Of a stretch of DNA of 64,000 bases, positions 489-50,714 are shown piece after piece. A model generated the notes under the pieces. It was not told the origin of the DNA. It was given only the letters and a program-made list of their open reading frames with translations, and searched no databases. Numbering within the stretch: the stretch's first letter is position 1; every line of letters starts with the position of its first letter. Both the position numbers and the translations under genes were made by a program. Source of the stretch: a virus (lineage: Duplodnaviria; Caudoviricetes); the IMG/VR virus record IMGVR_UViG_3300031229_000003, positions 3,415-67,414 of that record; one strand, 5' to 3'.

Positions 489-520
489 GAGAAGTATATC
501 AGGTTGTCGGCGTCCATCAA
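489..520 (-). promoter_or_regulatory. early promoter copy 1 (TTGATG-16-TATACT-TCTC)
   Basis: -10 at 493-498, -35 at 515-520; one of five copies of the motif. Confidence 0.7.
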
Positions 521-2978: not shown

Positions 2979-3317
2979 TCAGATCCCGCGCACGAACGGG
3001 CGCCACTCGGGCTGGTGGGCCAAGTACTCGGCGAAGGCCTCGAGGGCCTGCGCGCGGGTGGTGGCGACGCCGGCATCGATCGCGTCGAGCAGCGACTGTT
3101 CCACGAGCTGCTCGAAGAAGATCTCGGCCGCGGCGACCTTGCCGGACCGGATCGCGTCGACCAGGTGGCGCCGCTCGAGTCCGTACCCGCCCGTGAAGCC
3201 GAACGGGGCGAACGGGAGAACGGGGTCGGCTTCGAGCCGTTCCTTGGCGACGTCGAAGTCGAAAACGATCGTGGCGGACATGGCGACCTCCTTCGGGTTG
3301 ATGTTGCCGTTTGTCAT
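2979..3317 (-). CDS. hypothetical protein
   Basis: ATG 6 nt after a TATACT box; alternative start MSATIVF with GGAGG RBS. Confidence 0.6.
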   Translation of the reverse strand: MTNGNINPKEVAMSATIVFDFDVAKERLEADPVLPFAPFGFTGGYGLERRHLVDAIRSGKVAAAEIFFEQLVEQSLLDAIDAGVATTRAQALEAFAEYLAHQPEWRPFVRGI

Positions 3318-3351
3318 GAGAGAAGTATATACGAGTTAGCCGCCATGTCAA
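3318..3351 (-). promoter_or_regulatory. early promoter copy 2 (TTGACA-16-TATACT)
   Basis: -10 at 3324-3329, -35 at 3346-3351. Confidence 0.8.
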
Positions 3352-5681: not shown

Positions 5682-5978
5682 TCAGCGACGGCCCTGGATG
5701 GTGTGAAGAAGATCGGCCAAATCCTCCAGCGACGCTCCTAGCGCGTCGAGGACGCGACCGAGCGTCTCGACCGAGGGGTAGGTGTTGCCCTGCTCGTAGG
5801 TCCAGAGCATCGAGCGGGTGATCCCTGCACGCGCGGCGACCGCGGTCTGACTCTCGCCGTTGGCCTGCCGGAAGCGCCGCAGGGCCTCTCCCACACCCGC
5901 AAGACAGCCGGCGTCGTGGTTTCTGGCGCGGAACGAACCGATCGTCTCGAGGGCCGTGTGGTAGCGGGCGGGGTCCAT
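5682..5978 (-). CDS. XRE-family helix-turn-helix regulator
   Basis: LRRFRQANGESQTAVAARAGITRSMLWTYEQGNTYPSVETLGRVLDAL. Confidence 0.85.
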   Translation of the reverse strand: MDPARYHTALETIGSFRARNHDAGCLAGVGEALRRFRQANGESQTAVAARAGITRSMLWTYEQGNTYPSVETLGRVLDALGASLEDLADLLHTIQGRR

Positions 5979-7237: not shown

Positions 7238-7485
7238 GCTCGTCTCCTTCCGTGGTTCTGGTGGGACTGCGGTTTCGGCCGTGCGGGGGCCGTCGTTGCC
7301 CGTCGCGCGTGCACCTGCGCGGCGGGAAGAATCCGGTAGCTCGGGACCAGCCCTTCGATGGCTGCCAGCTCGCTCGGGGTGAGCTCGAGGACGGTCGGGT
7401 CCAGACCGTCGACGATCGGCAGACCGCCGAGGGTGGTCTCGACCGCTGGAGTCCAGTCGGTGCCCTCGATTTCGACGAAGACCAT
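7234..7485 (-). CDS. hypothetical protein
   Basis: GGAGAG RBS; ATGA overlap. Confidence 0.5.
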   Translation of the reverse strand: MVFVEIEGTDWTPAVETTLGGLPIVDGLDPTVLELTPSELAAIEGLVPSYRILPAAQVHARRATTAPARPKPQSHQNHGRRRA

Positions 7486-7875: not shown

Positions 7876-7909
7876 GTGAGAAGTATATACGAATGGCCGC
7901 CGATGTCAA
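7876..7909 (-). promoter_or_regulatory. early promoter copy 3 (TTGACA-16-TATACT) with AT-rich upstream element
   Basis: -10 at 7882-7887, -35 at 7904-7909, AT-rich tract to about 7933. Confidence 0.8.
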
Positions 7910-9662: not shown

Positions 9663-9680
9663 AAGGGAAGTATATATCTT
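9663..9680 (-). promoter_or_regulatory. early promoter copy 4 (-10 only), probably leaderless
   Basis: GATATATACT-TCCCTT-ATG; no recognisable -35. Confidence 0.5.
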
Positions 9681-12285: not shown

Positions 12286-12449
12286 CGCCGGGCCAACCTG
12301 CTCATCGCGGCGACGTCACCGCAACGCCGGCAGACCTCGGAAACGCCGTCCCGCGTTGGATGGTAGCGGTGTCCGAGCCGGCGACAGCGCGCCTTCTGCC
12401 ACCAGCGCTTCAGACGACGGACAACGGGGGTGGGGTGCGGATCGGCCAT
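12282..12449 (-). CDS. small DUF1660-like Cys/His protein (55 aa)
   Basis: Manual translation MADPHPTPVVRRLKRWWQKARCRRLGHRYH...CRRCG; GGAGG RBS; ATGA overlap with the clamp gene. Confidence 0.6.
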   Translation of the reverse strand: MADPHPTPVVRRLKRWWQKARCRRLGHRYHPTRDGVSEVCRRCGDVAAMSRLARR

Positions 12450-12498
12450 GTGCGGTGGCCCTCCATCGGTTCGGGGTTCTGGGGTTCCAGCCTCACAA

Positions 12499-12531
12499 GA
12501 GAAGTATATACGATAGTCGGCCCGGGATCAA
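12499..12531 (-). promoter_or_regulatory. early promoter copy 5 (TTGATC-17-TATACT)
   Basis: -10 at 12503-12508, -35 at 12526-12531. Confidence 0.75.
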
Positions 12532-15200: not shown

Positions 15201-16379
15201 CTACGCGAGGCTTCGCTGCGCGGGCTCATCCTTCTTGGCCTTCTTCTTCGGCAGCCGGTCGACCGCGTCCCTGGCCTTGTCGAAGTCCTCGATCGGCAGG
15301 AACTTGACCTGGGCGATCTCGCCCTGTCCGATCGACTCGAGGAGCTCGTACTCGGACGCGCCACGCTTCTCCAGCATCGCCTGCAGCGCCTCGACCTGGT
15401 CGGGCGAGATCGTCTCCCACGGCGGCTGACCCTCGGCGACCGGCGTGTCGGCCGGTGAGGTTTCGCCGTCCCCGGTCGCCTCGGTCGCCTCGGCCTGTGG
15501 TTTGCCGCCGTCCGTCCGGAGCTCGTGGACGACCTCGTCGGTGCGCGTCGGACCGAAGGCCGAGCCGACCTGATGGATGCCCGCCGGAGCCTCTCCGAGA
15601 TCCTCTGCCTCCGGCAGCAGGACGCCGGTGATCACCCGGTAGAGGTCGCGCAGGGCCTTGCGCTTGGCCTTCCCCTCCGAGGCCTCGACCGCGACGACGT
15701 TTCGACGGTTGACCCGGACCGAGTAGACGCCGTGGAACCTTCGGTTCGGAAATTCTTTCTCCGGGTCGGCCGGGTCCTTCTCCGGGTCGTCGTGGAGCCG
15801 GTACTGGATGCGTACCGGGCACTTGAGGTAGCCACCGTTGTCCCAGAGCTCCTTCGGTAGCGGTGGAACGTCGACCTCGATCGTGTACTTGGCGAGGGCG
15901 GCCACCAGACCCTCGAAGCCTTCCTTGCGCGGGTACATCGTCGACGCGATGATGTTCCACGCGTTGCCGATCAGCGGCAGGCCGTGAAGCCACGCCTCGC
16001 AGGCGCACTCGAGGACCACCGCCTTCGGATAGGCCGGCCCGTCATAGCCGCCCTTGCCCGGATGCTTGTCGGTGTCGAACCCGATCGCCGTGTTCATCAG
16101 CGGCATGATCACCGCGTCGAGGATCGGACCCTTCAGAGCCTCCCGTAGGCGTACGAGCGCCGTCGACGAGAGGATCGTCCGTTCCGGCACGGTCAGGTCG
16201 GGACTCTGCAGCGCTCCGAAGAAATGATCGTGGGCCTCCTGCAGGGCGACCATCGTCTCCGGGGGGACGACCTTCTCGAGGAACGTGCGTCGGTCCGTCT
16301 TCGTGAGGCTGGCTCTCGTCGCCGGCAATGTCTCGGCGGCGGTCGGCTCGGCGGTGGCGGTCGTCGGTTCGTCGGTCAT
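15201..16379 (-). CDS. putative single-strand annealing protein (RecT-like recombinase)
   Basis: Directly downstream of YqaJ exonuclease; HGLPLIGNAWNIIASTMYPRKEG resembles the RecT core; acidic tail. Confidence 0.55.
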   Translation of the reverse strand: MTDEPTTATAEPTAAETLPATRASLTKTDRRTFLEKVVPPETMVALQEAHDHFFGALQSPDLTVPERTILSSTALVRLREALKGPILDAVIMPLMNTAIGFDTDKHPGKGGYDGPAYPKAVVLECACEAWLHGLPLIGNAWNIIASTMYPRKEGFEGLVAALAKYTIEVDVPPLPKELWDNGGYLKCPVRIQYRLHDDPEKDPADPEKEFPNRRFHGVYSVRVNRRNVVAVEASEGKAKRKALRDLYRVITGVLLPEAEDLGEAPAGIHQVGSAFGPTRTDEVVHELRTDGGKPQAEATEATGDGETSPADTPVAEGQPPWETISPDQVEALQAMLEKRGASEYELLESIGQGEIAQVKFLPIEDFDKARDAVDRLPKKKAKKDEPAQRSLA

Positions 16380-16407
16380 CGGTCACTGCTCCTTTCGGGT
16401 TCTGGTT

Positions 16408-17340
16408 TCACCGCTTCTTCTGGATCCGCGGTGTGCGGGAGGTCCCCGAACGTAGACAGCGCTGGTAGACGTCCGGGTGGTTGAACTTCAACGCCGTCTG
16501 ATCGAGCCGGGTCGACGACTGCTCGAAGTAGGTCAGCCACTTGAGCGGATCGCCGTACTCACCGGCCTCGGCGTCGCCGAGCGCGGCGAGCATCTTCGCC
16601 TTCGCTCGCGTTTCGGCCTTCTCCGTGTCGAGTCGTTTCTTCCTCAGGCGCGCCCACTCGTCGACGAGCTCCTTGTCGCACGGGACGACGCTTCGCGGGA
16701 TCCTGCGGATCCGTTTGAGGACGTCGACGGACGGCGGCTCGCCTTCGGGAGGCACGCCGGCGACGACGTGGCGTTGCCACCACTCGCGGGCCCGGCCGAC
16801 GAGGATCTCGATCAGGGCCTCGTTTCGTTCCACGCGAAACGTCTCGACGTCCGGTCGACCGAACCGTGAGAGCAAGACGGCCGGGCGGACGAGCTCGAGC
16901 TCGCCGCAGAACATCTGGTGGTGGACCTGGACGATGACGCGCTTGGGGACCTGGTCGCTGCCCGGCTCGCCCCACTCCTTCTCGCCAAGCGCGGTCCACT
17001 TCGCCTCCAGCGCCTCGGCCGCCGGTCGCCCGTCACGAAGAACCCGGGCGTCGAGGTGGCAGCGGAACAGAGGATCCGCCGGGCTCGTGAGGTGCAGCAG
17101 GGAAGGATCGTCGAGCTCGACGTCGATCGCCAGGTCCTCGGCCGCCTGCTCGAGGATCGAGCGCTCGAAGCGGTTGCCGAGCGCGATCGAGCGGTTCTCG
17201 TCGAGGTCCTTGAGCTCGTAGGTCTTTTCGGCCCAGACGTCCGCCGCGGAGCGGAACGGGTCCATCCCCAGGATCGCGGCGATGTCGGACGAGCCGATCG
17301 ACGCGCGGCGCCCGGCGCGTTGTGCCTCGGTAATTGGCAT
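16408..17340 (-). CDS. YqaJ/lambda-exonuclease-family nuclease
   Basis: IGSSDIAAILG, GNRFE, CHLDA, LEAKW, QVHHQM. Confidence 0.9.
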   Translation of the reverse strand: MPITEAQRAGRRASIGSSDIAAILGMDPFRSAADVWAEKTYELKDLDENRSIALGNRFERSILEQAAEDLAIDVELDDPSLLHLTSPADPLFRCHLDARVLRDGRPAAEALEAKWTALGEKEWGEPGSDQVPKRVIVQVHHQMFCGELELVRPAVLLSRFGRPDVETFRVERNEALIEILVGRAREWWQRHVVAGVPPEGEPPSVDVLKRIRRIPRSVVPCDKELVDEWARLRKKRLDTEKAETRAKAKMLAALGDAEAGEYGDPLKWLTYFEQSSTRLDQTALKFNHPDVYQRCLRSGTSRTPRIQKKR

Positions 17341-18181: not shown

Positions 18182-18486
18182 CGCCGCTCGTTCGGGCGCC
18201 GGCGGCCACCATTGCGACCCTGACGCCGGTCCTGGCGATCGTAGATGGCGCTTCGTAGCTCGTCCTTCGGCGGGCTCGCCGTCGAGCCGATCACGCGGAC
18301 ATCCTTCGCGGCCGGTCCGCGCTCGCCGTCGACCCGGTCGAACTCCACCCGATCGCCGTCCTCGAGCTTGCGGTAGCCCCTCTGGTCGATCGCGCTGAAG
18401 TGGACGAAGACGTCCTTCTCGCCACCGTCCGGCGTGATGAACCCGTATCCCTTCTCCGCGTTGAACCACTTCACCGTACCCTGCAT
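18178..18486 (-). CDS. cspA: cold-shock domain protein with Arg-rich tail
   Basis: [33 protein letters not shown]. Confidence 0.95.
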
Positions 18487-19117: not shown

Positions 19118-20176
19118 CTACACGGACGGCCGGAGGATCGGCGGATACTCCTTCCTAGCCCAGAGCCGCTCGGGTATCCGACCCTGCTGGCCGGGCCGCG
19201 CCCCGGCGTCCTGCTTCACGTAGAGGGCGGTGTCGCTGGCGCCACAGACGTCGGCGACGGCCTCGACCCACGCGATCTCCATCGGTCGGTGCTGGGGTCC
19301 GCTCTCGCCTCCGACGATGATCCAGTCCACGAGCCGCTCCTCGCAGAACAGTCCGCCCTCGCAGTTCGCGTCATGCTCCTCGCGTGTGAGGATGCACTGC
19401 GGCCAGACCCACGGCTCGTAGTCGACCGGGCCAAGAGCCGGCTCGTAGGAGACGAAGCGAGCAGCGGCCGGACACCGCAGCAGCTCGAGGATTCGGCCGT
19501 CGGCCTGCGCCTGGTTCTCCACGGAGGTTCCCTGAATCACGTTCGATAGCGGCCACGGCAGCGTCTCCCCCCAACGCTCGAGCGCTGCGTCGAGCTCTGG
19601 AATCGGTTCCTCGAGTCTGCGAAGGCTCGCCTGGAGCTTACGCAGTGCGTCGAGGATCTTCTGCGGTCGCTCTGGTGCGCTGAGGTAGAGACGGGCCAGG
19701 TCCGGTCGCTTCGTCAGGATCTGGAAGCGGTGCCGGTCGGCGATCGCCATGACGCCGTAGATGATGTCGAGATGGTCGGGGCCGAGAGCTTCGTGGTGAA
19801 GGTCCGACATCGAGTCGACGAAGATCAGGCGCGGCCTTTTCCAGTGGATCGGCTTCTCGTAGACGCTGAGGTCGGTGACCACCCGTCCGTTCCAGCGCGG
19901 AAGCGCCACGTCGTCGTCGTCCGCCGGGCGATCGCCGCCCCGCTGCCAGCGGACGACGATTCGGTAGGCGGATTCTGTGGGGCTCAGGGCGCGGATGCGG
20001 TCCCTCTCGTCGCCCCCGCGCTCGGTGACCGCCCGGAGCTTCGCCTGGGTGGCGTTGGCGATCCGGGCGGAGACAGCCTCCGCGTAGCAATGGCGGCAGC
20101 CCTCGGACTTGCGCGAGCAGCCCTTCGTCGGGTTCCAGGTGGCGTCGGTCCATCCGATCCCGGAGCGGTCAGCCAC
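19118..20176 (-). CDS. DUF5131 (phage Gp37/Gp68) family protein
   Basis: IGWTDATWNPTKGCSRKSEGCRHCYA, IFVDSMSDL, FQILTKRP, GTSVENQ, WIIVGGESGP. Confidence 0.9.
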   Translation of the reverse strand: MADRSGIGWTDATWNPTKGCSRKSEGCRHCYAEAVSARIANATQAKLRAVTERGGDERDRIRALSPTESAYRIVVRWQRGGDRPADDDDVALPRWNGRVVTDLSVYEKPIHWKRPRLIFVDSMSDLHHEALGPDHLDIIYGVMAIADRHRFQILTKRPDLARLYLSAPERPQKILDALRKLQASLRRLEEPIPELDAALERWGETLPWPLSNVIQGTSVENQAQADGRILELLRCPAAARFVSYEPALGPVDYEPWVWPQCILTREEHDANCEGGLFCEERLVDWIIVGGESGPQHRPMEIAWVEAVADVCGASDTALYVKQDAGARPGQQGRIPERLWARKEYPPILRPSV

Positions 20177-20429
20177 CCGCGGCCTCCTTCTCCGCTCGGT
20201 GGAGCACATCTCGCAGCCACCGGATCTGCCCCTCGAGGTCCTCGGCGCGCTTGAACTTGTCGAGCTGGTACTGGAGAACCAACCGCTCGCAGGTGTGCCA
20301 GAGCGGTCCCGGAGGCACCAGCATCGTAGCGGCGTTGAGCAGGTCGGGAACGGGGTCGCCGCCGTAAGAGAACTCCCCGAGCGCAGCGCGGGTCAATCGC
20401 TCGGCTTCGTACCGCTCTCCGTCAACCAT
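20169..20429 (-). CDS. hypothetical protein
   Basis: MVDGERY; overlapping neighbours. Confidence 0.5.
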   Translation of the reverse strand: MVDGERYEAERLTRAALGEFSYGGDPVPDLLNAATMLVPPGPLWHTCERLVLQYQLDKFKRAEDLEGQIRWLRDVLHRAEKEAAGG

Positions 20430-20655
20430 TGTCGTGTCCTCTCTCCGGGAGGTCCTCGGAGGGGCGGACGCCGAGGACGTCGTGCAGTTCGTCGAGAGCC
20501 CGTAGCGCCGTCCCGCGCTTGGTCTCGTCGCGGGAGACATAGAGGCCGCCTGCGCGCACGGCGCGGTGGAGTGTCTCGAGCGCCTTGCGGTGGCGAGCGA
20601 GCGCGGTCTGACTTCGCCCGAGGCTGGTCGGTTCCGACTTTGACCGGCGGGCCAT
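20422..20655 (-). CDS. hypothetical protein
   Basis: MARRSKS start coupled to the upstream stop. Confidence 0.5.
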   Translation of the reverse strand: MARRSKSEPTSLGRSQTALARHRKALETLHRAVRAGGLYVSRDETKRGTALRALDELHDVLGVRPSEDLPERGHDNG

Positions 20656-20981
20656 CAGAGCTTCCGCGGCTCGACGTCTTCCGCGACGACGGAGCGGACG
20701 ATCTCGTCTTTGGCGAGGTCGGACGCCTTCTGCAACATCTCGTCGTCCAGCTCGAGGTACTGCGGATCGCGGTCGTCGAGGCGCGCCAGGACCCTGCGTA
20801 GCCCACTTCGGGCGCGAAGGCTTGCTCGGGACAGAGCTTGTCGGGCGGCCTTGTTTTTCGGCCGGTCGGGAGAGAGGAAGTGGTCGACCTCGCGGAGTAG
20901 CGACTCGAGGATCTCCTGGGTGCCCCCGAGCGCGTAGGCGACCCGCTCCGAGGACAGCATCGCTCGGCGCTCGTCGCTCAT
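20655..20981 (-). CDS. hypothetical protein
   Basis: Helical; coupled at both ends. Confidence 0.55.
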   Translation of the reverse strand: MSDERRAMLSSERVAYALGGTQEILESLLREVDHFLSPDRPKNKAARQALSRASLRARSGLRRVLARLDDRDPQYLELDDEMLQKASDLAKDEIVRSVVAEDVEPRKL

Positions 20982-21235
20982 GGACGAGTCCTCTTGAGCA
21001 AGTCGTCGGTGGGTTCGAGATAGCCGAGATGGTCCCCGTCGCTGGCCGACGCACGCCGGCGACGAGGGACGACCTCCTGGAAGACGGGGACGAAGCCAAC
21101 CATTTCGTAGGTGCGCTCACCGCCCGGGATCTGTCGGATCTGGGCACGGCCCAGACCGGCTTCTTTTCGGTGTTCGACCGAGAGGCCGCCGTCTGCGCTG
21201 AGCAGGACGGCCACGTTGGGGATGAGCGGCCTCAC
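20978..21235 (-). CDS. hypothetical protein
   Basis: GTGA overlap with the ATPase stop. Confidence 0.45.
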   Translation of the reverse strand: MRPLIPNVAVLLSADGGLSVEHRKEAGLGRAQIRQIPGGERTYEMVGFVPVFQEVVPRRRRASASDGDHLGYLEPTDDLLKRTRP

Positions 21236-22932
21236 GCGGCCTCCGACGCCTTCTGCGCCGCCTCGGCGAGCATCCGGTAGGCCTCGACCCACTCCGGCGA
21301 GCCGACGAGAACGTGATGGAGCTCGTCGATCCTGGCCGAGGCGACCTCGGTCAGCCCGAAGATCCTCTCCTCCCGGCAGACGCGGTGGAGCTGCATCATC
21401 TCCTCGATCTCGAGCGTCTCCCAGATCGCGCCGTCGAGCTGGATGATCGAGTGCGGACCGAAGCACCGGGCGCCAAGCCGGAACGCCGCCGAGTTGCGCT
21501 GACCGGTCGAGACGTACTTGCTGTTCCAGTCGAGCGGGACCTTGTCCTGGCCGACGTAGGCCAGAAAGCCGTTGTAGATCGTGATCTCGGGGACCCGCGT
21601 CTCGGCCGTGACGAGCTCGCCGAGAGCCGCCCAGGCGCCCTTCTCGATCCCTCGCAACGCCTCGGCGCGGACCTCGGCGTGCGTGCGCTCCTCGGTCGTT
21701 TCCTTGATCGCCGTCTGGAGCTCGGCGTAGCGTTCGGCGATGCGGGCGACGGTGAGCTTGCGTTCGGCGGCTTGCGCCGCGGCCTCGGCGCGGTCGACCT
21801 CCTCCTCGGACGGGCCGGTCGGCTCCTCGCGGAGCTTCGCCATCGTCTCCGTCCAGCGGGCGAGGGCGCCTTGTCGTTCTTCCAGTCGTCGCTCGGCACG
21901 CCGGAAGTGATGAATCTTCGTCTCTCGATCGGCTTCGGCGACCTCGGCCGCTGTCTCCGCGGTGGCGAGCTCGCGACGCAGCCGCTCGACGGTGCGTGCC
22001 GCGTCGTTCGAGGCGGTGACGGCGGCGAGGTGGGCATCCGTCGCCTCGGTGAGCTCCACCCGGACCGGCTCGAGATCCGGCTCCTCGCCGACGGTCGCCT
22101 GGAGCTCGGCCCGCTCGCGTTTCTTGTCGAGACAGGCTTGGCGCTCGGAGCGGATCCGGCCGAGCGACTCGTCGGCCATGGCCTTGGCCCTGGCAACGTC
22201 GCCGACCGGCTTCGCCGCGGCGAAGGCCTCGAGGACTTTCGTCTTCGATGCCGGCGTGCCGCTTGCCGACAGCGCCCGCGTCGCCTCCTCGAGGCGCTCC
22301 TCGAGGGCTCCCCGGCTCTGGCCGAGCCGTCGCTCGGCTCGTTCGACCGCCTCCTCGCGCTCGCGGGCCTGCGCCTGGACCCAGGAGCGCATGATCTTCA
22401 CGGCGGCGAGCATGTCGCCGACCTCACGCTCCTCGATCGCCGCGGCGAGGAAGGTGAGCGTCTCCTCGTCGCCGGCGGCGACCTTCAGGAGTCGGTCCTC
22501 GGTGACCGGGAGCGGGACGAGCTCGAGAAGCGCCTTCAACTGCTCGCGCTGCTTCGCCGACGGGTCCTTGATCCCCGGATCGATGAGACGCGACACAGGT
22601 GAGGTGTCGGCGAGCGAGAGGTCGGCGAGCATCTCCCCCGAGCGCGACACGGCGCCGGTGCGCGAGATCGTCAGCGTCCGGCCGGCCACGGTCGCCGAGC
22701 CGAGCAGAGCATCGGTGCCGTCGCGGCGGGCGTCGGAGACGCCGACCGTGAGGTGGCGTTGCGAGCCGACCGTCTCCTCGATCGCGGCCCGCGCGCGGGT
22801 CTTCATCGAGGCGTTCGGCCCCCACAGCTCGTTCATGCCGTGGCGCAGGAGCAGCGCGAGTTGGTTGATGCCGTCGAGGTTCAGGATCTCGACGGGGACG
22901 ACGGTCGGGTCAGGTGCTGCGGTTTTCGGCAT
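21232..22932 (-). CDS. SMC/Rad50-like coiled-coil ATPase (degenerate motifs)
   Basis: Start MPKTAA with GGAGG RBS; Walker-A-like GPNASMKT, long coiled coil, signature VSTGQ, Walker-B-like IIQLDG. Confidence 0.7.
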   Translation of the reverse strand: MPKTAAPDPTVVPVEILNLDGINQLALLLRHGMNELWGPNASMKTRARAAIEETVGSQRHLTVGVSDARRDGTDALLGSATVAGRTLTISRTGAVSRSGEMLADLSLADTSPVSRLIDPGIKDPSAKQREQLKALLELVPLPVTEDRLLKVAAGDEETLTFLAAAIEEREVGDMLAAVKIMRSWVQAQAREREEAVERAERRLGQSRGALEERLEEATRALSASGTPASKTKVLEAFAAAKPVGDVARAKAMADESLGRIRSERQACLDKKRERAELQATVGEEPDLEPVRVELTEATDAHLAAVTASNDAARTVERLRRELATAETAAEVAEADRETKIHHFRRAERRLEERQGALARWTETMAKLREEPTGPSEEEVDRAEAAAQAAERKLTVARIAERYAELQTAIKETTEERTHAEVRAEALRGIEKGAWAALGELVTAETRVPEITIYNGFLAYVGQDKVPLDWNSKYVSTGQRNSAAFRLGARCFGPHSIIQLDGAIWETLEIEEMMQLHRVCREERIFGLTEVASARIDELHHVLVGSPEWVEAYRMLAEAAQKASEAA

Positions 22933-23302
22933 GTGCGGATGCCTCCTCGGTTGGTTGGGGCTGTGCGGCCTGGCCGAGAGCGATTCGCTCCCGGAGCTGG
23001 TCGCGGTACATGGCGAGCAGGATGCCGACGATCGCCGAGCGGCGAAGGTGCAGCCGGTCGGCCGCGGCGTCGAGCTCGCCCTTGACGTCGTCGGGCAGCT
23101 CGAGCGCCACGCGGACCTCCTCCTCCTCCGTCCACGGCTCGAACCCTGGGAAGCCCGCGTGGACGCGGCCTTCGATCTCTCCCCCAAAGCTGCGCAGGAT
23201 GAGCAGGATCGCACCGCGGACGCCGCTCAACTGGTGTTCGGCGACGATCGTCTCGAGGACCTCGCGAAGCTGGACTGGCAGGAACGTGAGGTGGTTCTTC
23301 AT
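22910..23302 (-). CDS. putative ribbon-helix-helix regulator
   Basis: VRVALELPDDVKGELDAAADRLHLRRSAIVGILL; the N-terminal half looks like a second copy. Confidence 0.6.
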   Translation of the reverse strand: MKNHLTFLPVQLREVLETIVAEHQLSGVRGAILLILRSFGGEIEGRVHAGFPGFEPWTEEEEVRVALELPDDVKGELDAAADRLHLRRSAIVGILLAMYRDQLRERIALGQAAQPQPTEEASAHAENRST

Positions 23303-23325
23303 CGAGCCTCCAAGGGGCGACGGTG

Positions 23326-23334
23326 TGGTAGGAT
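23326..23334 (+). promoter_or_regulatory. extended -10 promoter (TG-G-TAGGAT)
   Basis: TGnTAnnnT match pointing into an intergenic gap on the strand opposite the operon. Confidence 0.45.
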
Positions 23335-23340
23335 CGCGGC

Positions 23341-23410
23341 GCTCCGATCGTCGTGGTTCTGGGGCACCCGGCCCCGCGGGATGTGCGGTCCCGCGGGGCC
23401 AGTTCTTTTC
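23341..23410 (+). ncRNA. candidate ~70-nt small antisense RNA
   Basis: Extended -10 upstream; ends in a 12-bp hairpin followed by TTCTTTTC; loop complementary to CCGCACAT start boxes. Confidence 0.4.
23370..23410 (+). terminator. intrinsic-terminator-like hairpin
   Basis: GGCCCCGCGGGA-TGTGCGG-TCCCGCGGGGCC perfect 12-bp stem, then AGTTCTTTTC. Confidence 0.6.
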
Positions 23411-23567
23411 AGGTGGCGTGCTCGGTGTGGCAGCTCGGACAGACCGCGATGCTCATCAGGTCGCGGGCCGGGTTCTGGATCATCATCGAGATGAGGATCG
23501 GCGGCATCGCCCGGCAGTGAAAGCAGCCTCCGTGTCGAGGCTTCGGTGTCTCGGGTCGCTCCGTCAT
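23409..23567 (-). CDS. small zinc-ribbon protein (52 aa)
   Basis: Manual translation MTERPETPKPRHGGCFHC...VCPSCHTEHAT; GGGAG RBS; first gene after the leftward promoter. Confidence 0.55.
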   Translation of the reverse strand: MTERPETPKPRHGGCFHCRAMPPILISMMIQNPARDLMSIAVCPSCHTEHAT

Positions 23568-23601
23568 TCGCTGCGCTCCCCCCGTAGAATCTGTTCATCC
23601 C

Positions 23602-23633
23602 GATTGTATTCCATGTCCGTCCAGAGTACAATC
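23602..23633. promoter_or_regulatory. overlapping divergent promoter pair
   Basis: Plus strand TTGTAT(23604-09)-17-TACAAT(23627-32); minus strand TTGTAC(23626-31)-17-TACAAT(23603-08); sits where gene orientation switches. Confidence 0.75.
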
Positions 23634-23715
23634 CCGGTGACATGAGAGGCAGTGCCGCCGAGGTCCACCATGTTGGCGCGGTGCAGGCACTGGCGCCGAG
23701 CCTGGGAGGTAACGC

Positions 23716-24237
23716 ATGTCGGAAGAGAGCAAGGAATCCACCCTCGAGCCGATCACCGAGAAGCCCGTGATCCAGCTCATCAAGAGCCTCATCGAGGCCC
23801 ACCATCCGAGCCTGGAGTCAGCGGCGATCGAGGCCTTCTGGATCAAGGGCAAGGCGCTGACCTTCTGGGGGTCGATCGGGACCGCCGAGGAGGTCCTCTG
23901 GTGGCTGTCGAACGCCGATGTCCTCCTGCGGTTCAACCAGGGGCTCTGGGCCAAGCTGTCGGCGGACGGCCGCAAGGGTCTGGTCGACCACTTCCTCTCC
24001 CAGGTGGCCGCGAAGACGGGTGGCGTGACGTCGATGCAGACGTCGCGTGGCGAGCGGCAGCTCTACGAGGTCTTCCGGCCCTCGCTCGCCGTGCACCCGC
24101 AGGTCGTCGCCCGCAACCCGGGGCTCGTCGACGAGATCTCGGAGCTGCGCGAGCTGCAGGCCGCCATGTCGGACCCCGACCAGTTCCTCCTCGACTTCGC
24201 GAAGCGCCAGGACGGCGAGGCGGCCGAGGCGGCGTGA
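23716..24237 (+). CDS. phage putative-metallopeptidase-like protein (degenerate HExxH)
   Basis: GGAGG RBS; W..LS...RKGLVDHFLSQ in place of DHELxH. Confidence 0.6.
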   Translation: MSEESKESTLEPITEKPVIQLIKSLIEAHHPSLESAAIEAFWIKGKALTFWGSIGTAEEVLWWLSNADVLLRFNQGLWAKLSADGRKGLVDHFLSQVAAKTGGVTSMQTSRGERQLYEVFRPSLAVHPQVVARNPGLVDEISELRELQAAMSDPDQFLLDFAKRQDGEAAEAA

Positions 24238-25088
24238 GCGGGGCCCCGGAACCACGACTCCTGGCCCGCTTCGAGATCCCCGGGGAGGCCGCAGGCAAGA
24301 AGACGAGCGGCCGCGTCACCTACCCGGGGCTCCTCGAGCTCCGTCTCCAGAAGACGGAGAATCAACTCTTCCGGGCTCGGCAGCGCGCGGTCGCCCGCGG
24401 CCGCAGTCCGAAGCGCGTTCCGCGCCTCGTGTCGAGCCCGGCCGACCTCGTCGAGTGGGCGAGCCAGTTGGCGATCGCCCAGCCGGCCCGTGTCGAGCGC
24501 GTCCTGCGGGAGGCCGTCCAGCGCGTCGCGCCACGGATCCAGCCACCGACGTCGCACCGGAGCTGGCACCGCAAGGCGATGAAGCTCCTCGCGGAGCGGG
24601 ACTTCCCGCGGCCGCTCTGCGCCGACTCGCACCTCGTCCGGGTGGAGGTCGTCGTCTACATGGGCCAGGGGCAGCGCGGCGACCTGATCAACTTCGAGGA
24701 GGCGGTCTGGGATCTCCTCGAGGAGGCCGGGCTCCTCGCGAGCGACGCCTGGATCAACTCCCACGGCGACTCGCGGCGCGATTGGACCCGGCCCTGGGCG
24801 CCCGGCGTCGAGATCGCGGTCCACGACCTCGGACCGCGCCAGGCGTGGGCGCCCGCGGTGACCGTGTACGGACTTGCGGCAGCCGGTGGCGGCCTCGGCC
24901 CGATCCGCTTCGAGGTCAAGCAGGACGGTCAGGTCACCCGCGGCACGGCCGCGAAGGACGCCAACCGCGCCGCCCTTCTCCGCGCGGCCAACCTGGCCGT
25001 GCTCCAGAGCTTCGGCGTCTCGCTCGAAGACGGCGCCGAGATCCACTGCGAGGTGCCCGATGAGCAGTCGCTCCCGCTTCCGGGGTGA
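24234..25088 (+). CDS. rusA: RusA-like Holliday junction resolvase with extra C-terminal domain
   Basis: RFEIPGEAAGKK...RGDLINFEEAVWDLLEEAGLLASDAWI; GTGA overlap. Confidence 0.7.
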   Translation: MSGAPEPRLLARFEIPGEAAGKKTSGRVTYPGLLELRLQKTENQLFRARQRAVARGRSPKRVPRLVSSPADLVEWASQLAIAQPARVERVLREAVQRVAPRIQPPTSHRSWHRKAMKLLAERDFPRPLCADSHLVRVEVVVYMGQGQRGDLINFEEAVWDLLEEAGLLASDAWINSHGDSRRDWTRPWAPGVEIAVHDLGPRQAWAPAVTVYGLAAAGGGLGPIRFEVKQDGQVTRGTAAKDANRAALLRAANLAVLQSFGVSLEDGAEIHCEVPDEQSLPLPG

Positions 25089-25089
25089 G

Positions 25090-25749
25090 GTGCCGTGGAC
25101 GTTCGTCGAACCGCTCGCCTGGCCGGTCGGGTGGGCGCGAACTCCGGCGGCCGAGCGCCAGCGGTCTCAGTTCAGCTACGGTCGCTCCCGGGCGTCACGT
25201 GCCCACGGAGCCTCGTTGCCCTCCGCGGCGCAGCGTCTGCGAGAAGAGCTCGAGCGCCTCGGCGCCGAGGGCACGATCCGGATCGCGACGAACCTGCGGG
25301 TGCGCCTCGACGGTCAGCTCCACGCGAACCAGACGGAGGTCCAGCCGGACGATCCGGGGATCGCGGTCTACTTCGACCTCGACGGGGAGAGCCAGGTCAT
25401 CCCGTGCGACCGCTGGGACCGGGTCGGCGACAACCTGCACGCGGTCGCGCTCTCGGTCGCCGCACTGCGCGGTCTCGACCGCTGGGGGACGCCGTCGATC
25501 GTCAAGGCCTCGTTCCGGGGCTTCAAGGCCCTGCCGCCGGCATCCGGCCCGACGTCGGTCGACCAGGCGATGCGTGAGATCGAGACGCTCTCCGGAGTGC
25601 CGATCGCGAACGACGAGGACCTCCGGCGTGCCGTGCGCGCCGCGGCGAGCAAGTGGCATCCCGACCGAAGCGGTGGCGACGCCGGGCAGTGGCACCGGCT
25701 CGACGCCGCACGACGGTTCCTGATCGACAACGGTCGGCTCAGCGACTAG
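25090..25749 (+). CDS. phage J-domain (DnaJ C-terminal HPD) protein
   Basis: PLAWPVGWARTP, DPGIAVYF, IPCDRWDRVGDNLHAVAL, KWHPDRSGGD. Confidence 0.8.
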   Translation: MPWTFVEPLAWPVGWARTPAAERQRSQFSYGRSRASRAHGASLPSAAQRLREELERLGAEGTIRIATNLRVRLDGQLHANQTEVQPDDPGIAVYFDLDGESQVIPCDRWDRVGDNLHAVALSVAALRGLDRWGTPSIVKASFRGFKALPPASGPTSVDQAMREIETLSGVPIANDEDLRRAVRAAASKWHPDRSGGDAGQWHRLDAARRFLIDNGRLSD

Positions 25750-25784
25750 CTGTGAGGCGCGGCGCTCCCGCTGCGACCTGAGCT

Positions 25785-26156
25785 ATGCTCATGGCCATGT
25801 TCGTCCAACCTCGTACAAGGCCGGAAGTCTACGGGTGCCTGATCTGCGGCAGGGAGCTACCCCGGACGGAGGGGAAGACCCCCAGGGAGCTCTGCCGTCC
25901 GTTTTGCACGGACGTCAACCGCTACCTGGCGGCGCTTGAGCGCGCGCTCGAGGCGCTGCTCACCGGGTACACCGAGAAGCGCTGCGACCCTCCGCTGCCG
26001 AGCGGGGGGGTCTGGGACCTGTCCGACGAGCACTCGGCGGCCCACGCGAAGCGCCTACGCCAGCGGCTGATGCTCCTCACCCACCAGGTCCCGGTCCAGT
26101 ACCACAACGTCCGGGACGACCACGGCCGCTTCGCCCCGAAGCCGGACGTCGTCTAG
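25785..26156 (+). CDS. zinc-finger hypothetical protein (likely start 25797)
   Basis: CLIC...CRPFC; converges on the endolysin gene. Confidence 0.6.
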   Translation: MLMAMFVQPRTRPEVYGCLICGRELPRTEGKTPRELCRPFCTDVNRYLAALERALEALLTGYTEKRCDPPLPSGGVWDLSDEHSAAHAKRLRQRLMLLTHQVPVQYHNVRDDHGRFAPKPDVV

Positions 26157-26160
26157 CTCC

Positions 26161-26775
26161 TCAGACGGTGGCGAGGACCCGCGCGAGGCTCGAAGCGGCG
26201 ACGGCGGCACGGAGTCGATCGAGCTCCCGGCGGATCTTCTCGTCGTAGCGGTTCTTCTTGTAGCCGCGGCCGTTGTAGATCTTGGCGAACCGCGTCTCGT
26301 CCTCACGCATCAGCGCGAGGTGGAGCTCCTCGTCCCAACGGATGAACGCGACGAAGGCCCGCAGGTGGTCGGCCTCGTCGCCGAGGATCATCGCGTTGAG
26401 GAAGCCCTGGATCGTCTGGAAGCCCGCGAAGCGATGGTTGAAGCCCATGATCTGGAACTTCCCCCACGAGGCGGACTGGACCGCGGCGATCCGATCTAGC
26501 TTCGCCGCCCGCCCGAGCCGATCGTGCTCCCGGCCAGCGCCGAGGTAGCCGCCAGGGTCGGGGTTCGAGATCCCGGGATGCTGGCGGCTGAACCGACCCT
26601 CGGTGAAGCGATGGAACCAGTGCCGCTCGAAGAGGATCCGGCACTGCCCGTCGGAGAGGAAGCCGCCGAACGGTGCCTCCACGCGCGCGACCGCGGCGAT
26701 CATCAGCGGATCGCACTCGAGCATCCAGGCAGCGCCGAGCCAGTCGGCGGTCGACAGCGGGGCTTTCTCTGCCAT
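26161..26775 (-). CDS. endolysin, N-acetylmuramidase (DUF3380 family)
   Basis: AVARVEA, ILFERHWF, SASWGKFQIMGFNH, FAKIYNG..Y..NRYD. Confidence 0.92.
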   Translation of the reverse strand: MAEKAPLSTADWLGAAWMLECDPLMIAAVARVEAPFGGFLSDGQCRILFERHWFHRFTEGRFSRQHPGISNPDPGGYLGAGREHDRLGRAAKLDRIAAVQSASWGKFQIMGFNHRFAGFQTIQGFLNAMILGDEADHLRAFVAFIRWDEELHLALMREDETRFAKIYNGRGYKKNRYDEKIRRELDRLRAAVAASSLARVLATV

Positions 26776-26785
26776 GCGCCCGATC

Positions 26786-27238
26786 CTACCGCGTCGAGCT
26801 TCCTGGTTTCGGCGCGAGGACGGCCGGCATGCGGCCGGAGGCGTTCGGGACGACCAGTGCCCTGACCCCTCGGATCAGGATGCAGACGCCGACGGCCGAG
26901 AGGACGGACCCGGCCGAGTAGCCCAGGTGACCGATCGGCTCGGGGCCGCCGTCGAGGTGGACGAGCCACCGCCAGTCTTCACGGTAGCCGAACAGGATCA
27001 TCGCGTCGAGAAGCGTCAACGCGGCGAGCCCGATCCCGCCCGACGCGATCAGCCACAGACCGCCACGCACCGCCGGGTTGACCCGTCGGCGGATGCGGCC
27101 GAACCACGTCTCGTCGAGGTCCTCCACCCGCCGCCCGGCCGCCTCGCGGAGAAACCACAGCGCGCCGACGACCATCCAGACGAGCGCCGCGGTGCGCAGC
27201 ACCATCGCGACCACGAACACCCACATCGCCACGGTCAT
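26786..27238 (-). CDS. membrane protein of the lysis cassette
   Basis: Three hydrophobic segments; lies between holin and endolysin. Confidence 0.6.
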   Translation of the reverse strand: MTVAMWVFVVAMVLRTAALVWMVVGALWFLREAAGRRVEDLDETWFGRIRRRVNPAVRGGLWLIASGGIGLAALTLLDAMILFGYREDWRWLVHLDGGPEPIGHLGYSAGSVLSAVGVCILIRGVRALVVPNASGRMPAVLAPKPGSSTR

Positions 27239-27705
27239 GACCCTTTCTCCTCCTTCTCGTCTCGCTCCTTGTCGTCGAGCAGGAACTCCGGGGGTTCGGG
27301 CGGCGCCGGCGGTCGCTCACCGCGTTCGATCACGATCCGGCGGTGGAAGACGAAGTGGACGACGGCACGGGCGAACCCCAGCGGATCGGCGGCCACCCGA
27401 GTCCAGAATGCGTCGATGACGACCAGCAGGGCGTCGCCTCCCATGACGATGAACGCGGCGAGCAAGAGCTGCCAGCCGAAGGCCAGGTCCGTCTCGCGGA
27501 CCGCGAGCATGACAAACAGGCCCACGAGGAGCGACTTGAAGAGGACCAGCACCCAGGCCCGCAGGGTCGAGTGCCCGCGCTTCATGGCGAGGAGCGTCCC
27601 TGCGGCGAGCGAGACGACGATCCAGGCGAGGTACTCGCGGATCCAGGCGACGACCTCCTGCAGCATGATGGGTTGGTCCCTCATCGTTTTGGTGCTCGAT
27701 GGCAT
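27235..27705 (-). CDS. putative holin
   Basis: Three transmembrane segments, highly charged C-terminus, upstream of the endolysin. Confidence 0.7.
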   Translation of the reverse strand: MPSSTKTMRDQPIMLQEVVAWIREYLAWIVVSLAAGTLLAMKRGHSTLRAWVLVLFKSLLVGLFVMLAVRETDLAFGWQLLLAAFIVMGGDALLVVIDAFWTRVAADPLGFARAVVHFVFHRRIVIERGERPPAPPEPPEFLLDDKERDEKEEKGS

Positions 27706-27719
27706 GGCATCCTGTCAGG

Positions 27720-29627
27720 TCAGAGACGTTCTCGGACCTCGAGGTCCGAGCGGAAACGCGTCCCGTGGTCGTGGGTCAGCTTGGGGTCCCGCAACGGGCC
27801 CCAGACGAAGGCGATCCTGCGGAAGTCGGGGTCCTCCGGGAAGATCATCAGCAGCACGTCGCCTGTCACCCCCAGGCGACGGAACAGGTAGTCGAACAGG
27901 TCGCCCACGGCGACCTCTTTGACCAGATTCGTCAGGCGCAGCCGGAAGAGCCGATAGGTCGGCTCCTCGTCCTCCCAGAGGACTCCGGACGGCGTTTCCT
28001 CGACGCGCGAAAGGTCGACGGCCTGCACCTCGAAGCCGCCGGCGAGGTTCATCCCCGACAGAGCGGGTCCCTCGGCGAGACGCGAGGCGTCGAGCCAGGT
28101 GACGAGGTTGCCGTCGCGGTCGGTGTAGCTCCACTCGCCGGGCTGCTCCGGCTCGAAGAGGAGCTCGAAGCGGATCCGCCGCGCGGTCAGCGTCACGAGC
28201 TCGCCGCTCGAGGCCGTGTAGGGATGGGCGATCGAGCGCGGCACGGGCTTGCCGACCGTCTCCGGGATGATCTCGCCCCAGAGCGACGTCGCGAGCGGGG
28301 GAAACGCCTCGAGCCATCCGGAGTCGTAGTCCCACGGCACGCGGTCGAGCGCAGCGAGCCAGCCCACGGCGTAGACCTTGACGTTCTGACCGCCGTCGGG
28401 CGTCGTCAAGATCCGGGCTTCGACGTCCGCGGCGGTGGCCGCGCCGAGCTCCGAGGCGCTCCAGCGGATGACGAGGTAGTGAATCTCGTCGTCGGTGAGC
28501 ACCTTCGACTCCGAGAGCGCCGTCGCGCTGCCGTCGATCCAGAGCTCGAGCTCGACCGTCGGGTCGCCGCCGGCCGCGGTCCGCTGGACCGCGGCGACGA
28601 GTGTCTGGGCGTCGGCCGTCGCCGCCAGCCCGACGTTCCCACCGCCGTCGCCCTCGCCGAGGCCGGGGTCGTCGAAGCCGATGCGGAAGTCCATCGCCGA
28701 GCCGAGCGTTTCCGGCTCGACCGCGGAGAGCGTCGTTGCGGCCTCGTCGAACGGGTCCGGTGCGTAGACGAGCCCCGGATCGCCCTCGCCGGTATTCGTG
28801 GCGGCGAGAAACGCTCCCTCGACGTCGGCGGGCCGGATGCGGGTCGCGGGCTCGTAGATCCACTGCACCGCGGCGAGCTTGATGTTCTCCGTCGTGTCGC
28901 CGAAGGCCGGCGCCGTGACGGCGCGGAGCTCGAGATCGGCGCCCGAGGGGTCGGCGAGGTCGGCGACGTCGAACTTGACGTCGAGGATCCAGTGCCCAGC
29001 CTCGCCGGCGGGCCAGCCGCGGGCTCGGCCGGTGATCCCGCTCGGCGAGCCGGCCTGGTAGATCTCGACGTCGAGGTCCGGGTTCGCGACGGTCGTATCC
29101 GTCGGAGCGTAGGAGATCCGCAGCGTGTGGCGGCGGGCGCCGGCGCCGGCACCGCCGTGCGGATCGGGCAGGGCCAGGCGCACGGTCATCGACTGCTCGA
29201 CGTCGGTCGGCGTCACGTAGGCGGCGCCCGGGGCGAGCGGGTCGTCGACGAGGTCGTGCGGTGAGCCCGTCGCGTTCGTCGCCTCGAGGAAGGCGTCGGC
29301 CGCCCCTTCGGCGTGGACCTGCGGCCGCAGGCGGCGCTCCGTCAGTTCCTCGCCGCGGCGGACGCGGTAGTACGAGCCGGCCTCGGGGATCACGATCTTG
29401 CCGAGGAAGATCGCTCGGCTGGGCCGCGCGGCCCCGGCCTCGTAGACGACGTCGAGGACCGTGTGGTGCGGCTTGAGGCTCGGCGAGCGCCAGTGCTCGT
29501 GCATCTTGTTCGTGCGCAGAAGCGAGACTCCGAGGCCGCTCACCTCGCCGCCCGCCGACAGCGTTCCCGCGTCGAGGTCGATCCAGTTCGGCGCGCAGGC
29601 GATGAGGAAGTTGATCCGGTCGGTCAT
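27720..29627 (-). CDS. tail tip/baseplate protein with an internally duplicated beta domain
   Basis: 635 aa, second gene after the tape measure; repeated segments. Confidence 0.7.
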   Translation of the reverse strand: MTDRINFLIACAPNWIDLDAGTLSAGGEVSGLGVSLLRTNKMHEHWRSPSLKPHHTVLDVVYEAGAARPSRAIFLGKIVIPEAGSYYRVRRGEELTERRLRPQVHAEGAADAFLEATNATGSPHDLVDDPLAPGAAYVTPTDVEQSMTVRLALPDPHGGAGAGARRHTLRISYAPTDTTVANPDLDVEIYQAGSPSGITGRARGWPAGEAGHWILDVKFDVADLADPSGADLELRAVTAPAFGDTTENIKLAAVQWIYEPATRIRPADVEGAFLAATNTGEGDPGLVYAPDPFDEAATTLSAVEPETLGSAMDFRIGFDDPGLGEGDGGGNVGLAATADAQTLVAAVQRTAAGGDPTVELELWIDGSATALSESKVLTDDEIHYLVIRWSASELGAATAADVEARILTTPDGGQNVKVYAVGWLAALDRVPWDYDSGWLEAFPPLATSLWGEIIPETVGKPVPRSIAHPYTASSGELVTLTARRIRFELLFEPEQPGEWSYTDRDGNLVTWLDASRLAEGPALSGMNLAGGFEVQAVDLSRVEETPSGVLWEDEEPTYRLFRLRLTNLVKEVAVGDLFDYLFRRLGVTGDVLLMIFPEDPDFRRIAFVWGPLRDPKLTHDHGTRFRSDLEVRERL

Positions 29628-49931: not shown

Positions 49932-50714
49932 CTACGATCCTACACGACGCTCGTCGGGAGCGCCCGGCAAGGGGCGACTGCGCTTGCGCCGCCGGTTCGG
50001 CTGCGCCCGGACGAGCCCGGCGGCGCGCAGGTAGAGGTAGACGGTCGGCTTGCTCACCCCGGTCGCGGCGACGATCGCGGCGTACGTCGCACCGGTCTGG
50101 CGCAGCTCGACGACGAGCGCCCGGCGCCGAAGTCGCTGCCGAACGTCTTCGGTCGGCGCGGTCCACTTCTTGGCTCGCTGGGCGGTCGCAGGGTCGCGGC
50201 GCAGGTCGGCCGTCCAGCGCTTGACGCTGCGCCGGGAGACGTCGAGCCGCTTGGCGATCGCCGGTACTCCGAAACCCTGGCGGTAGAGTCCTCGGGCGCC
50301 CTCCTCGAGGACGGTGTAATCGCGTCGGGCCTGGACCTTGCGGCGGGCCCGCTGGCTCGCGCTCTTGTCTCGGAGGAGGCCGCGCTCCCGAAGGCGAGTC
50401 GCCACCCACTCGTGGCTCGGTCCGTCGCCATCGAGCTCGCGAGCGAGCTGCTCGGCGACCGCGCGACAAGACAGCCGCTGCTCGAGGTAGAGCTCCAGGG
50501 TCCGCGGGATCAGTGCAGCGGACCACGAAGGCGAGACGTTGCGCATCTCCCCGCCCTTCGCCACGATGCCGTAGACCCAGGAGACCGAGACGCCGAGCTC
50601 GACGGCGACCTGCTCGAGCGAGCGACCGCTGCGGTAGAGATCAAGTGCCGATCGGCGACGACGCGCACCGTAGCGACGACGGCTCACCGGCGACGAAACG
50701 TCTTGCGCATCCAC
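49932..50714 (-). CDS. protein with four tandem helix-turn-helix units
   Basis: LYRSGRSLEQVAVELGVS; LYLEQRLSCRAVAEQL; LYRQGFGVPAIAKRLDVS; LRQTGATYAAIVAATGVS. Confidence 0.8.
   Translation of the reverse strand: MDAQDVSSPVSRRRYGARRRRSALDLYRSGRSLEQVAVELGVSVSWVYGIVAKGGEMRNVSPSWSAALIPRTLELYLEQRLSCRAVAEQLARELDGDGPSHEWVATRLRERGLLRDKSASQRARRKVQARRDYTVLEEGARGLYRQGFGVPAIAKRLDVSRRSVKRWTADLRRDPATAQRAKKWTAPTEDVRQRLRRRALVVELRQTGATYAAIVAATGVSKPTVYLYLRAAGLVRAQPNRRRKRSRPLPGAPDERRVGS

Follow-up and report, generated by a model that had tools for sequence, protein, structure and literature searches.

A candidate antisense RNA gene complementary to a leader cassette shared by several genes of a GC-rich phage

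The window analysed here, a stretch of 64,000 nucleotides (64 kb), covers most of a 67.4-kb record of an uncultured phage of 70% GC that comes from metagenomes only; the record is estimated to be 88% complete, and nearly all of its genes are carried by the minus strand. The locus under study lies, as an initial annotation of this DNA had claimed, in the gap between two minus-strand genes, both delimited by GC frame plot and open reading frame. The first gene of this leftward operon (23409-23567) encodes a 52-aa CxxC...CxxC (zinc-ribbon-like) protein, which has a homolog in the related genome G001 and no match in Pfam or PHROG. On the other side of the gap, a 130-aa protein is encoded (22910-23302) whose C-terminus is, judging from the sequence pattern, probably a ribbon-helix-helix (RHH); residues 67-101 match chain 3h87_C weakly (E 0.73). 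The end of this gene is overlapped by the gene of a 566-aa ABC/SMC-like ATPase (21232-22932, minus strand). Beyond the 52-aa gene, the interval 23568-23715 contains conserved blocks and, at 23602-23633, two back-to-back TACAAT promoters found by promoter scan and comparison with G001. The rightward promoter leads to a rightward 173-aa gene; the leftward one leads to the leftward operon and crosses the locus in the sense opposite to the candidate RNA gene.

This phage has no close relative in GenBank. No GenBank phage gave a megablast match to positions 20000-28000, the portal protein is at best about 26% identical to known portals, and host inference from it failed. The comparison set consisted of four related records (G001, G002, G003 and L015). 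The system is carried by only three or four genomes, two of them close relatives. G001 (87 kb) has the same gene order and an ATPase 54% identical to that of the window. G003 (70 kb), which was retrieved by an exact search with the ribosome-site box, has the same arrangement at the locus, with a divergent gene of 50% identity (E 1e-54) and an RHH-type gene of 33% identity (E 1e-14); it has no zinc-ribbon gene there, and its SMC-like ATPase is a different one. G002 is a 13.7-kb fragment near G003, and L015 is a distant metagenome record, lower in GC yet syntenic. The 130-aa protein has homologs in G001, G003 and L015; used as a query, it brought up no relatives. The ATPase protein retrieved only G001, L004 (too distant) and the low-GC L015, and nothing from the genome contigs collection. 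A further ATPase relative known as a protein match, P0003 (43% identity), turned up in none of the phage, plasmid and viral collections, and an alignment search with the 173-aa protein yielded no new relatives. Two pattern searches gave candidates that were rejected: the sole match of CCAGAACCACG...GATCnTACCAC, in L017, was spurious and coding, and the 13 contigs matched by the 17-mer GAACCAGCAACCGCACA were, all except L019, chance matches within unrelated coding sequence. In L015, gene 1 of the operon (2253-2420) encodes a 55-aa ribbon-helix-helix protein of the size of Arc.

A small RNA gene on the plus strand of the gap is plausible. Promoter and terminator geometry delimit a predicted antisense RNA of about 68 nt (23341-23409), which would start 7 nt past the -10 element and end at the T-tail. 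A 29-nt leader precedes a perfect 12-bp hairpin (23370-23400), detected by terminator scan and RNAfold, with arms at 23370-23381 and 23389-23400 and the loop TGTGCGG at 23382-23388. The T-rich tail AGTTCTTTT follows (23401-23409) and reaches into the stop codon of the 52-aa gene on the minus strand. Leader, hairpin and tail are all where the initial annotation had placed them. Its description of the loop was right as to TGTGCGG but too wide: the true loop is 7 nt long, so that the quoted 9-mer AUGUGCGGU takes in the closing A-U pair, and in RNAfold a U.G pair shrinks the 7-nt loop to 5 nt. The predicted RNA has a fold energy of -41.3 kcal/mol (z = -3.8), and the terminator scan called the hairpin of the locus on the plus strand only. 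The 5′ part contains a module TCGTGGTTCTGGG (23351-23363) that is identical in the alignment with G001 and complementary to the leader motif CCAGAACCACG; it is partly paired within the predicted first stem-loop, with just 5-6 predicted free loop bases. Rfam searches returned only tRNA for the whole window at the gathering score, and three chance-level matches to unrelated families for positions 23250-23720 at E up to 10. The predicted RNA is therefore not a homolog of the phage c4, sar or OOP RNAs.

The hairpins of the window, G001 and G003 all have 11-13 pairs and keep the loop GUGCGG, while their stems differ on both arms (GGCCCCGCGGGA in the window, GGCCGGGGGGT in G001 and GGCCCCCGGGG in G003) by compensatory changes. 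This comparison rests on individual folds, as MAFFT set the three hairpins out of structural register and RNAalifold with two sequences misaligned the 5′ part. The non-coding stretch from the hairpin to the RHH start is 65% conserved between the window and G001, with 60% for neighbouring coding sequence. Sense and antisense hairpin energies were -26.6 and -28.6 kcal/mol in G001, -23.1 and -28.4 in G003, and -15.5 and -23.2 in L015. Since in both G003 and L015 an A.C mismatch of the sense strand becomes a G.U pair in the antisense strand, the antisense hairpin is more stable there by 5 and 8 kcal/mol, respectively; the strands differ little in the window. The U-tail on the antisense strand is rich in the window, rich/partial in L015, moderate/partial in G003 and missing in G001, which leaves 3′ end formation uncertain beyond the window. 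In L015, the hairpin and a promoter-like site persist, but not the loop or the boxes described below. The loop motif of this record, AGGGAAA, also occurs at the start of its ATPase gene; it was not counted as covariation because it is merely the SD-like motif of that phage. In L015 (2474-2516), the sense strand of the hairpin loop is SD-like (AGGGAAAGAA), and the antisense loop would thus be anti-SD-like.

The predicted RNA is preceded by an extended -10 element, TGTGgTAGGAT (TGTGGTAGGAT, 23324-23334), with the hexamer TAGGAT at 23329-23334 and no -35 element, located within the 5′ UTR of the 130-aa gene; the shorter form reported initially, TGGTAGGAT, is present at 23326-23334. About 1.3-1.7 copies of the pattern TGTG.TA...T are expected in a genome. 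The 67-kb genome and G001 have one copy each, both at the locus; G003 has two, one of which is found, with unchanged relative strand, at the syntenic position. At the locus, the pattern is always directed at the hairpin and lies 21-32 nt ahead of the RHH gene start. The element reads TGTGgTAGGAT in the window, TGTGgTACGAT in G001, TGTGcTATCCT in G003 and cGTGaTATGTT in L015. In the first three, the bases that vary (TAGGAT, TACGAT, TATCCT) are exactly the non-consensus positions of the -10 hexamer; the TG stands one base before TAnnnT, and the consensus positions are kept in the relatives, as in extended -10 promoters. An identical 9-mer TGGTACGAT also stands ahead of two ordinary genes in G001. 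Two further promoter-like sites were seen on the minus strand of the window: TGTACGATC (51435-51443), which has a TTGACC -35 and stands before the 165-aa gene starting at 51381, and TGTAGGATCG (about 49933-49942), which heads a non-coding stretch of 445 nt. Both belong to the class TG(n)TA(C/G)GATC, and their G001 counterparts are TGGTACGAT.

The loop of the hairpin is complementary to a box found at gene starts. The octamer CCGCACAT occurs four times in the window: at 454-461, 12448-12455 and 22931-22938, which are starts of minus-strand genes, and in the hairpin. An exhaustive search thus bore out the proposed box between GGAGG and the start codon at 455, 12449 and 22932, as each of the three copies outside the hairpin terminates in the ATG of its gene with GGAGG ahead. 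The bare count of this octamer is weak (1.2 expected; four reached by 5 of 100 shuffles), and the evidence is strong because of the position at ATGs: by our estimate, chance would put CCGCAC ahead of about 0.05 starts (0.07 in the initial annotation), against three observed. The box CCGCACATG was found at three starts in the window, four in G001 and two in G003, always on the coding strand, with none to two in controls. Three of the G001 sites are orthologs of window sites; the fourth and the G003 sites are not, so that in related phages the box is kept at orthologous as well as non-orthologous starts. Furthermore, CCGCAC is enriched in sense start zones (-45 to +3), with seven copies against 1.6 expected in the window (P 0.0013) and ten against 3.3 in G001 (P 0.0024). 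Neither its complement nor a composition-matched control was enriched in the start zones.

When the leaders were folded, the motif formed the loop of a 4-5-bp hairpin in seven of eight, the stem of which includes the end of the SD and the AUG. These small stems co-vary between genes, from GGCA/TGCC to GGCCA/TGGCC. The first form is found at the 98-aa gene (159-455), whose start box lies in the hairpin GGCA-CCGCACA-TGCC (451-465), with an early promoter ahead at 489-499. The second form is found in the leader (12444-12484) of a 55-aa protein, gene 1 of the clamp operon, which carries CCCCAGAACC at 12484-12475 and GGCCA-CCGCACA-TGGCC at 12460-12444. The gene that follows it encodes a DNA_pol3_beta_2 domain, and the leader of its G001 ortholog keeps both box and hairpin. 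At the 566-aa ATPase gene, the start box CCGCACATG (22930-22938, minus strand) could be framed by a GGCAT/ATGCC mini-hairpin, and the G001 ortholog has the same box. The partial ACCGCAC reported ahead of the ribosome-binding site of the 165-aa gene (start 51381) was recovered as well: CCGCAC (51392-51397, minus strand) lies in the loop of CCTC-ACCGCACG-GAGG, a predicted fold that sequesters the SD and whose CCGCAC loop is kept in the orthologous G001 leader. A second CCGCACA was seen 24 nt upstream of the ATPase start box (22939-22975, minus strand), within the end of the 130-aa gene; its CCGCAC is kept in G001 despite different amino acids.

The genes with the box had been described as early, which was only partly confirmed. 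A strong promoter, TTGAC(A)-N18-TATACTTCTC, occurs five times on the minus strand of the window (489-499, 3320-3330, 7878-7888, 9665-9675 and 12499-12509). Two of the three box genes follow such early promoters, but the ATPase gene follows TACAAT and not TTGACA-N18-TATACT. At three of the five, the ATG lies 6 nt past the -10, which would give leaderless mRNAs of the genes starting at 3317, 7875 and 9662; the CCGCACATG box is found only with the two that have leaders. In G001, the promoter is present six times, and five of the leaders behind it contain CCGCAC.

A second conserved block, CGTGGTTCTGG, which the initial annotation had not noted, lies in the 5′ part of the predicted RNA, and its complement abuts the SD of further genes. 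Exact copies of the 11-mer CCAGAACCACG are confined to the locus and to positions beside SDs, numbering two in the window and three on the main coding strand of G001; a fourth G001 copy lies within conserved N-terminal coding sequence of the divergent cluster. Directly ahead of the SD, it is found at gene 7237 and at two G001 genes, each time 4-14 nt past a small hairpin whose loop is C(C)GCAC. At gene 7237 (166 aa), the cassette (7251-7292, minus strand) consists of the hairpin CGGCC-CCCGCAC-GGCCG (7292-7276) followed by CCAGAACCACG (7261-7251), which abuts the SD. Shorter versions of the 11-mer stand ahead of genes 12449 and 16379; in the latter, which encodes 392 aa, CCGCACA (16438-16432) and CCAGAACC (16405-16398) precede the SD on the minus strand (16398-16438). 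On the plus strand of the window, CCGGAACCACG (24246-24256) lies at codons 5-8 in gene 2 of the rightward operon; G001 has the exact CCAGAACCACG there, encoding the conserved PEPRL. This may be coincidence, due to coding, or else an additional site for pairing, on the RNA's own strand.

In G003, the block is TGAACCAGCAA, with an exact identity of 13 nt between the hairpin locus and about seven leaders, which usually read TGAACCAGCAA-CCGCACA-GGAGG. The block thus differs between phage groups while each locus carries the version of its own leaders, which is covariation. The sense strand of the locus resembles the leader cassette, with a hairpin loop, a block and an SD-like element that has no start codon behind it in any of the three phages (window, G001, G003). 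These data provide what is expected of a trans-acting small RNA, a conserved complementarity to unlinked ribosome-binding regions that changes on both sides together; a reader of the sense strand fits the same data.

That the hairpin is an ordinary terminator or a stabilising hairpin, whose loop would match strong ribosome-binding sites by chance, agrees with the octamer count, only weakly above chance. However, the loop is conserved amid the turnover of the stem, the block co-varies with the leaders, the motif is enriched by position and the promoter signature is kept, which together make chance and a plain terminator very unlikely, and we give this reading hardly any credence. We also consider it quite improbable that the motifs are DNA operators of a phage repressor, similar to the stoperators of cluster A mycobacteriophages, with the inverted repeat as the operator of the RHH protein. 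The sites are indeed asymmetric, have a single orientation and lie in short leaders straight after promoters, and an RHH-type gene adjoins the palindrome. Nevertheless, the arms of the large hairpin vary by compensatory changes while the spacer is conserved, the reverse of what an operator would do; the small flanking stems co-vary too, and the two motifs stand at very variable distances from one another in the window genome.

In several leaders, the order of the motifs (block, then CCGCACA) is opposite to that at the locus, so that both modules cannot pair coaxially with one RNA. With duplexfold, the 9-nt loop module gave -14 to -15 kcal/mol against the box leaders, and our own nearest-neighbour estimate for a loop-loop contact of 6-7 bp with CCGCAC(A) is about -11 kcal/mol. 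A duplex scan of the genome with the whole RNA was uninformative because melting of the GC-rich stem dominates, and in a genome scan, 8-mer complementarity to the 5′ region of the RNA was no commoner than with shuffled queries.

The explanation that we prefer, with a rough probability of 0.45, is an antisense RNA that targets the shared leader cassette both in cis and in trans. A host-type extended -10 (TGTGgTAGGAT) would start a plus-strand RNA of about 68 nt near 23341, antisense to the leftward operon between the 52-aa zinc-ribbon and the 130-aa RHH-type genes. This candidate RNA would comprise a 5′ part CGUGGUUCUGG, a GC-rich terminator hairpin with the loop UGUGCGG and a U-rich tail. As the DNA copied is an imitation of the leader cassette lacking a start codon, the RNA can be seen as an 'anti-leader'. 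Its loop would be complementary to CCGCAC(A), which the leaders would present in the loop of a small hairpin with part of the SD and the AUG, and its 5′ block to the CCAGAACCACG that abuts the SD of other genes. A loop-loop kiss, a duplex of 11-13 bp beside or over the SD, or both would block access of the 30S subunit to these mRNAs. In cis, full pairing with the intercistronic RNA between the zinc-ribbon and RHH genes may cause cleavage or uncouple the RHH-ATPase genes. From the observed sequence features, conservation, covariation and positional enrichment, we infer transcription and termination of the candidate RNA, its pairing, the repression and its timing. Among the readings considered, it alone makes use of the promoter signature, the strand asymmetry, the strong stem, the missing start codon and the covariation. 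If true, in each genome six to ten genes with a common leader cassette would be under one small RNA with two recognition modules, and the phage would have an RNA-run translational regulon of its own.

The role of an RNA-based lysogeny switch, which the initial annotation had suggested, was not supported. Tyrosine and serine integrase profiles had no match in the window genome or in G001, and the window carries an HTH_3 (XRE-type) gene (5718-5882, minus strand), possibly a Cro/CI-like regulator, which has no counterpart matching that profile in G001.

Alternatively, the CCGCAC and GAACCA motifs could be sense-strand, start-associated RNA elements whose reader is a protein, of the phage or the host, or else the ribosome. 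Such elements would be comparable to the translational operators of T4 RegA or MS2 coat protein. We hold this reading, the main rival, to be possible though somewhat unlikely. The large hairpin would then be an extra copy, a high-affinity site or a stabiliser of the early transcript, and an antisense RNA would be unneeded. Every copy is on the coding strand, beside or within ribosome-binding sites, and small hairpins comprising the SD and the AUG present the motif in their loops; a sense-motif reader predicts the enrichment, the covariation and the mini-hairpins equally well. A candidate reader, or else an RNA chaperone or helper, is the cold-shock-domain protein encoded in both phages (window 18292-18486, minus strand, E 8e-32; G001 2729-2923, E 1e-23). 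However, this reading leaves unexplained the conserved antisense promoter signature, the greater stability of the antisense hairpin in G003 and L015, and why, in this copy alone, the stem is 12 bp long and the start codon missing. A search for RegA homologs found none but had little power, as it matched no control genome either. T4 RegA, a protein that represses many early mRNAs through a short sequence at the start codon, would be the functional analogue of such a reader.

A third possibility, an RNA that acts only in cis on the downstream RHH-ATPase genes in the manner of P22 sar or lambda OOP, makes the same use of promoter, hairpin and tail, and its perfect complementarity in cis is given. 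The order of a small gene, an antisense RNA and a second gene is like that of arc-sar-ant in P22, and gene 1 of L015 is the 55-aa RHH gene. The resemblance to leaders would then be that of a decayed copy of the cassette. Against this, the RNA would stop about 39 nt before the start codon of the RHH gene, leaving the SD uncovered. Moreover, loop and block match the leader motifs even though the RHH protein is only 33% identical, and the block has co-changed in G003, which neutral decay would not produce. We therefore regard action in cis alone as unlikely.

To our knowledge, the known phage antisense RNAs (c4, sar and OOP) each control one neighbouring gene. In layout, the closest is P22 sar, which is transcribed from the opposite strand of the intercistronic region that follows the small gene heading an early operon, and whose 3′ end lies at a hairpin terminator; it is 68/69 nt long, the candidate RNA about 68 nt. 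In contrast to sar, which covers the ribosome-binding site of the next gene and has a single target, the candidate stops about 39 nt short and matches leaders elsewhere. In recognition logic, with short modules in loops near the ribosome-binding site, the closest is c4 of P1 and P7. This RNA is processed from a transcript of the same sense as its target and has one target operon, whereas the candidate RNA would be made from a separate antisense promoter and act on many unlinked targets. The complementary segments of c4 are borne on loops, and more than one short module pairs around the ribosome-binding site and blocks translation (PMC12197685). With several targets, two modules and an antisense promoter of its own, the candidate would vary the theme of phage antisense RNAs in a new way.

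The leader motifs also recall the start-associated sequences (SAS) of cluster K mycobacteriophages, a likeness that favours a sense-strand reader. These are short asymmetric repeats in one orientation, a few bases from the ATG of non-structural genes of different families; they are conserved across subclusters, and whether they are read by an RNA or a protein has been open since 2011 (PMC3203893). The likeness is limited to the rules of placement and orientation: the cluster K SAS is a 13-bp sequence, GGGATAGGAGCCC, located 3-7 bp before the start, while the motifs here are CCGCAC(A), CCAGAACCACG or TGAACCAGCAA, and thus are not SAS. The SAS description contains no candidate antisense RNA gene, and for the ESAS inverted repeats it found little support for an RNA hairpin, unlike the small stems here, which co-vary (PMC3203893). 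If the cis and trans antisense RNA is real, it would answer what reads start-associated sequences in actinobacteriophages, RNA or protein.

The two leader motifs further look like neighbouring stretches of the sequence complementary to the 16S rRNA 3′ end (primer AAGGAGG-TGATCCAG-CCGCA), which is again in line with a sense-strand reader. In the universal primer AAGGAGGTGATCCAGCCGCA, which may not be the host's sequence, CCGCA and TGAACCAG with one mismatch are adjacent, in the order of the G003 cassettes (L024-L027, e.g. G003 15481-15510). The predicted RNA would thus echo the 16S 3′ end: its parts GUGCGG, CUGGUUCA and, in G003, CCUCC recall GUGCGG-CUGGAUCA-CCUCC of the 16S rRNA (window 23351-23388). 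The 16S partner of CCGCAC lies in helix 45 and is paired in the mature ribosome. As to the ribosome being the sense-strand reader, GAACCA would mispair with the near-universal 16S UGGAUC. We take this resemblance as a lead only. That the RNA is a master 'anti-leader' imitating the mRNA-binding 16S 3′ end, for which the leaders of early genes bear the complements, with ribosome recruitment by extended complementarity early and shut-off by the RNA decoy later, appears improbable.

In an intergenic region of the divergent cluster of G001 (G001:C1:78939-79049, locus L028), which contains a pair of hairpins not conserved in the window, the two loops, CCGCACC and GUGCGG, are mutually complementary, and the GUGCGG hairpin, with a stem of 7 bp, stands directly before an SD.
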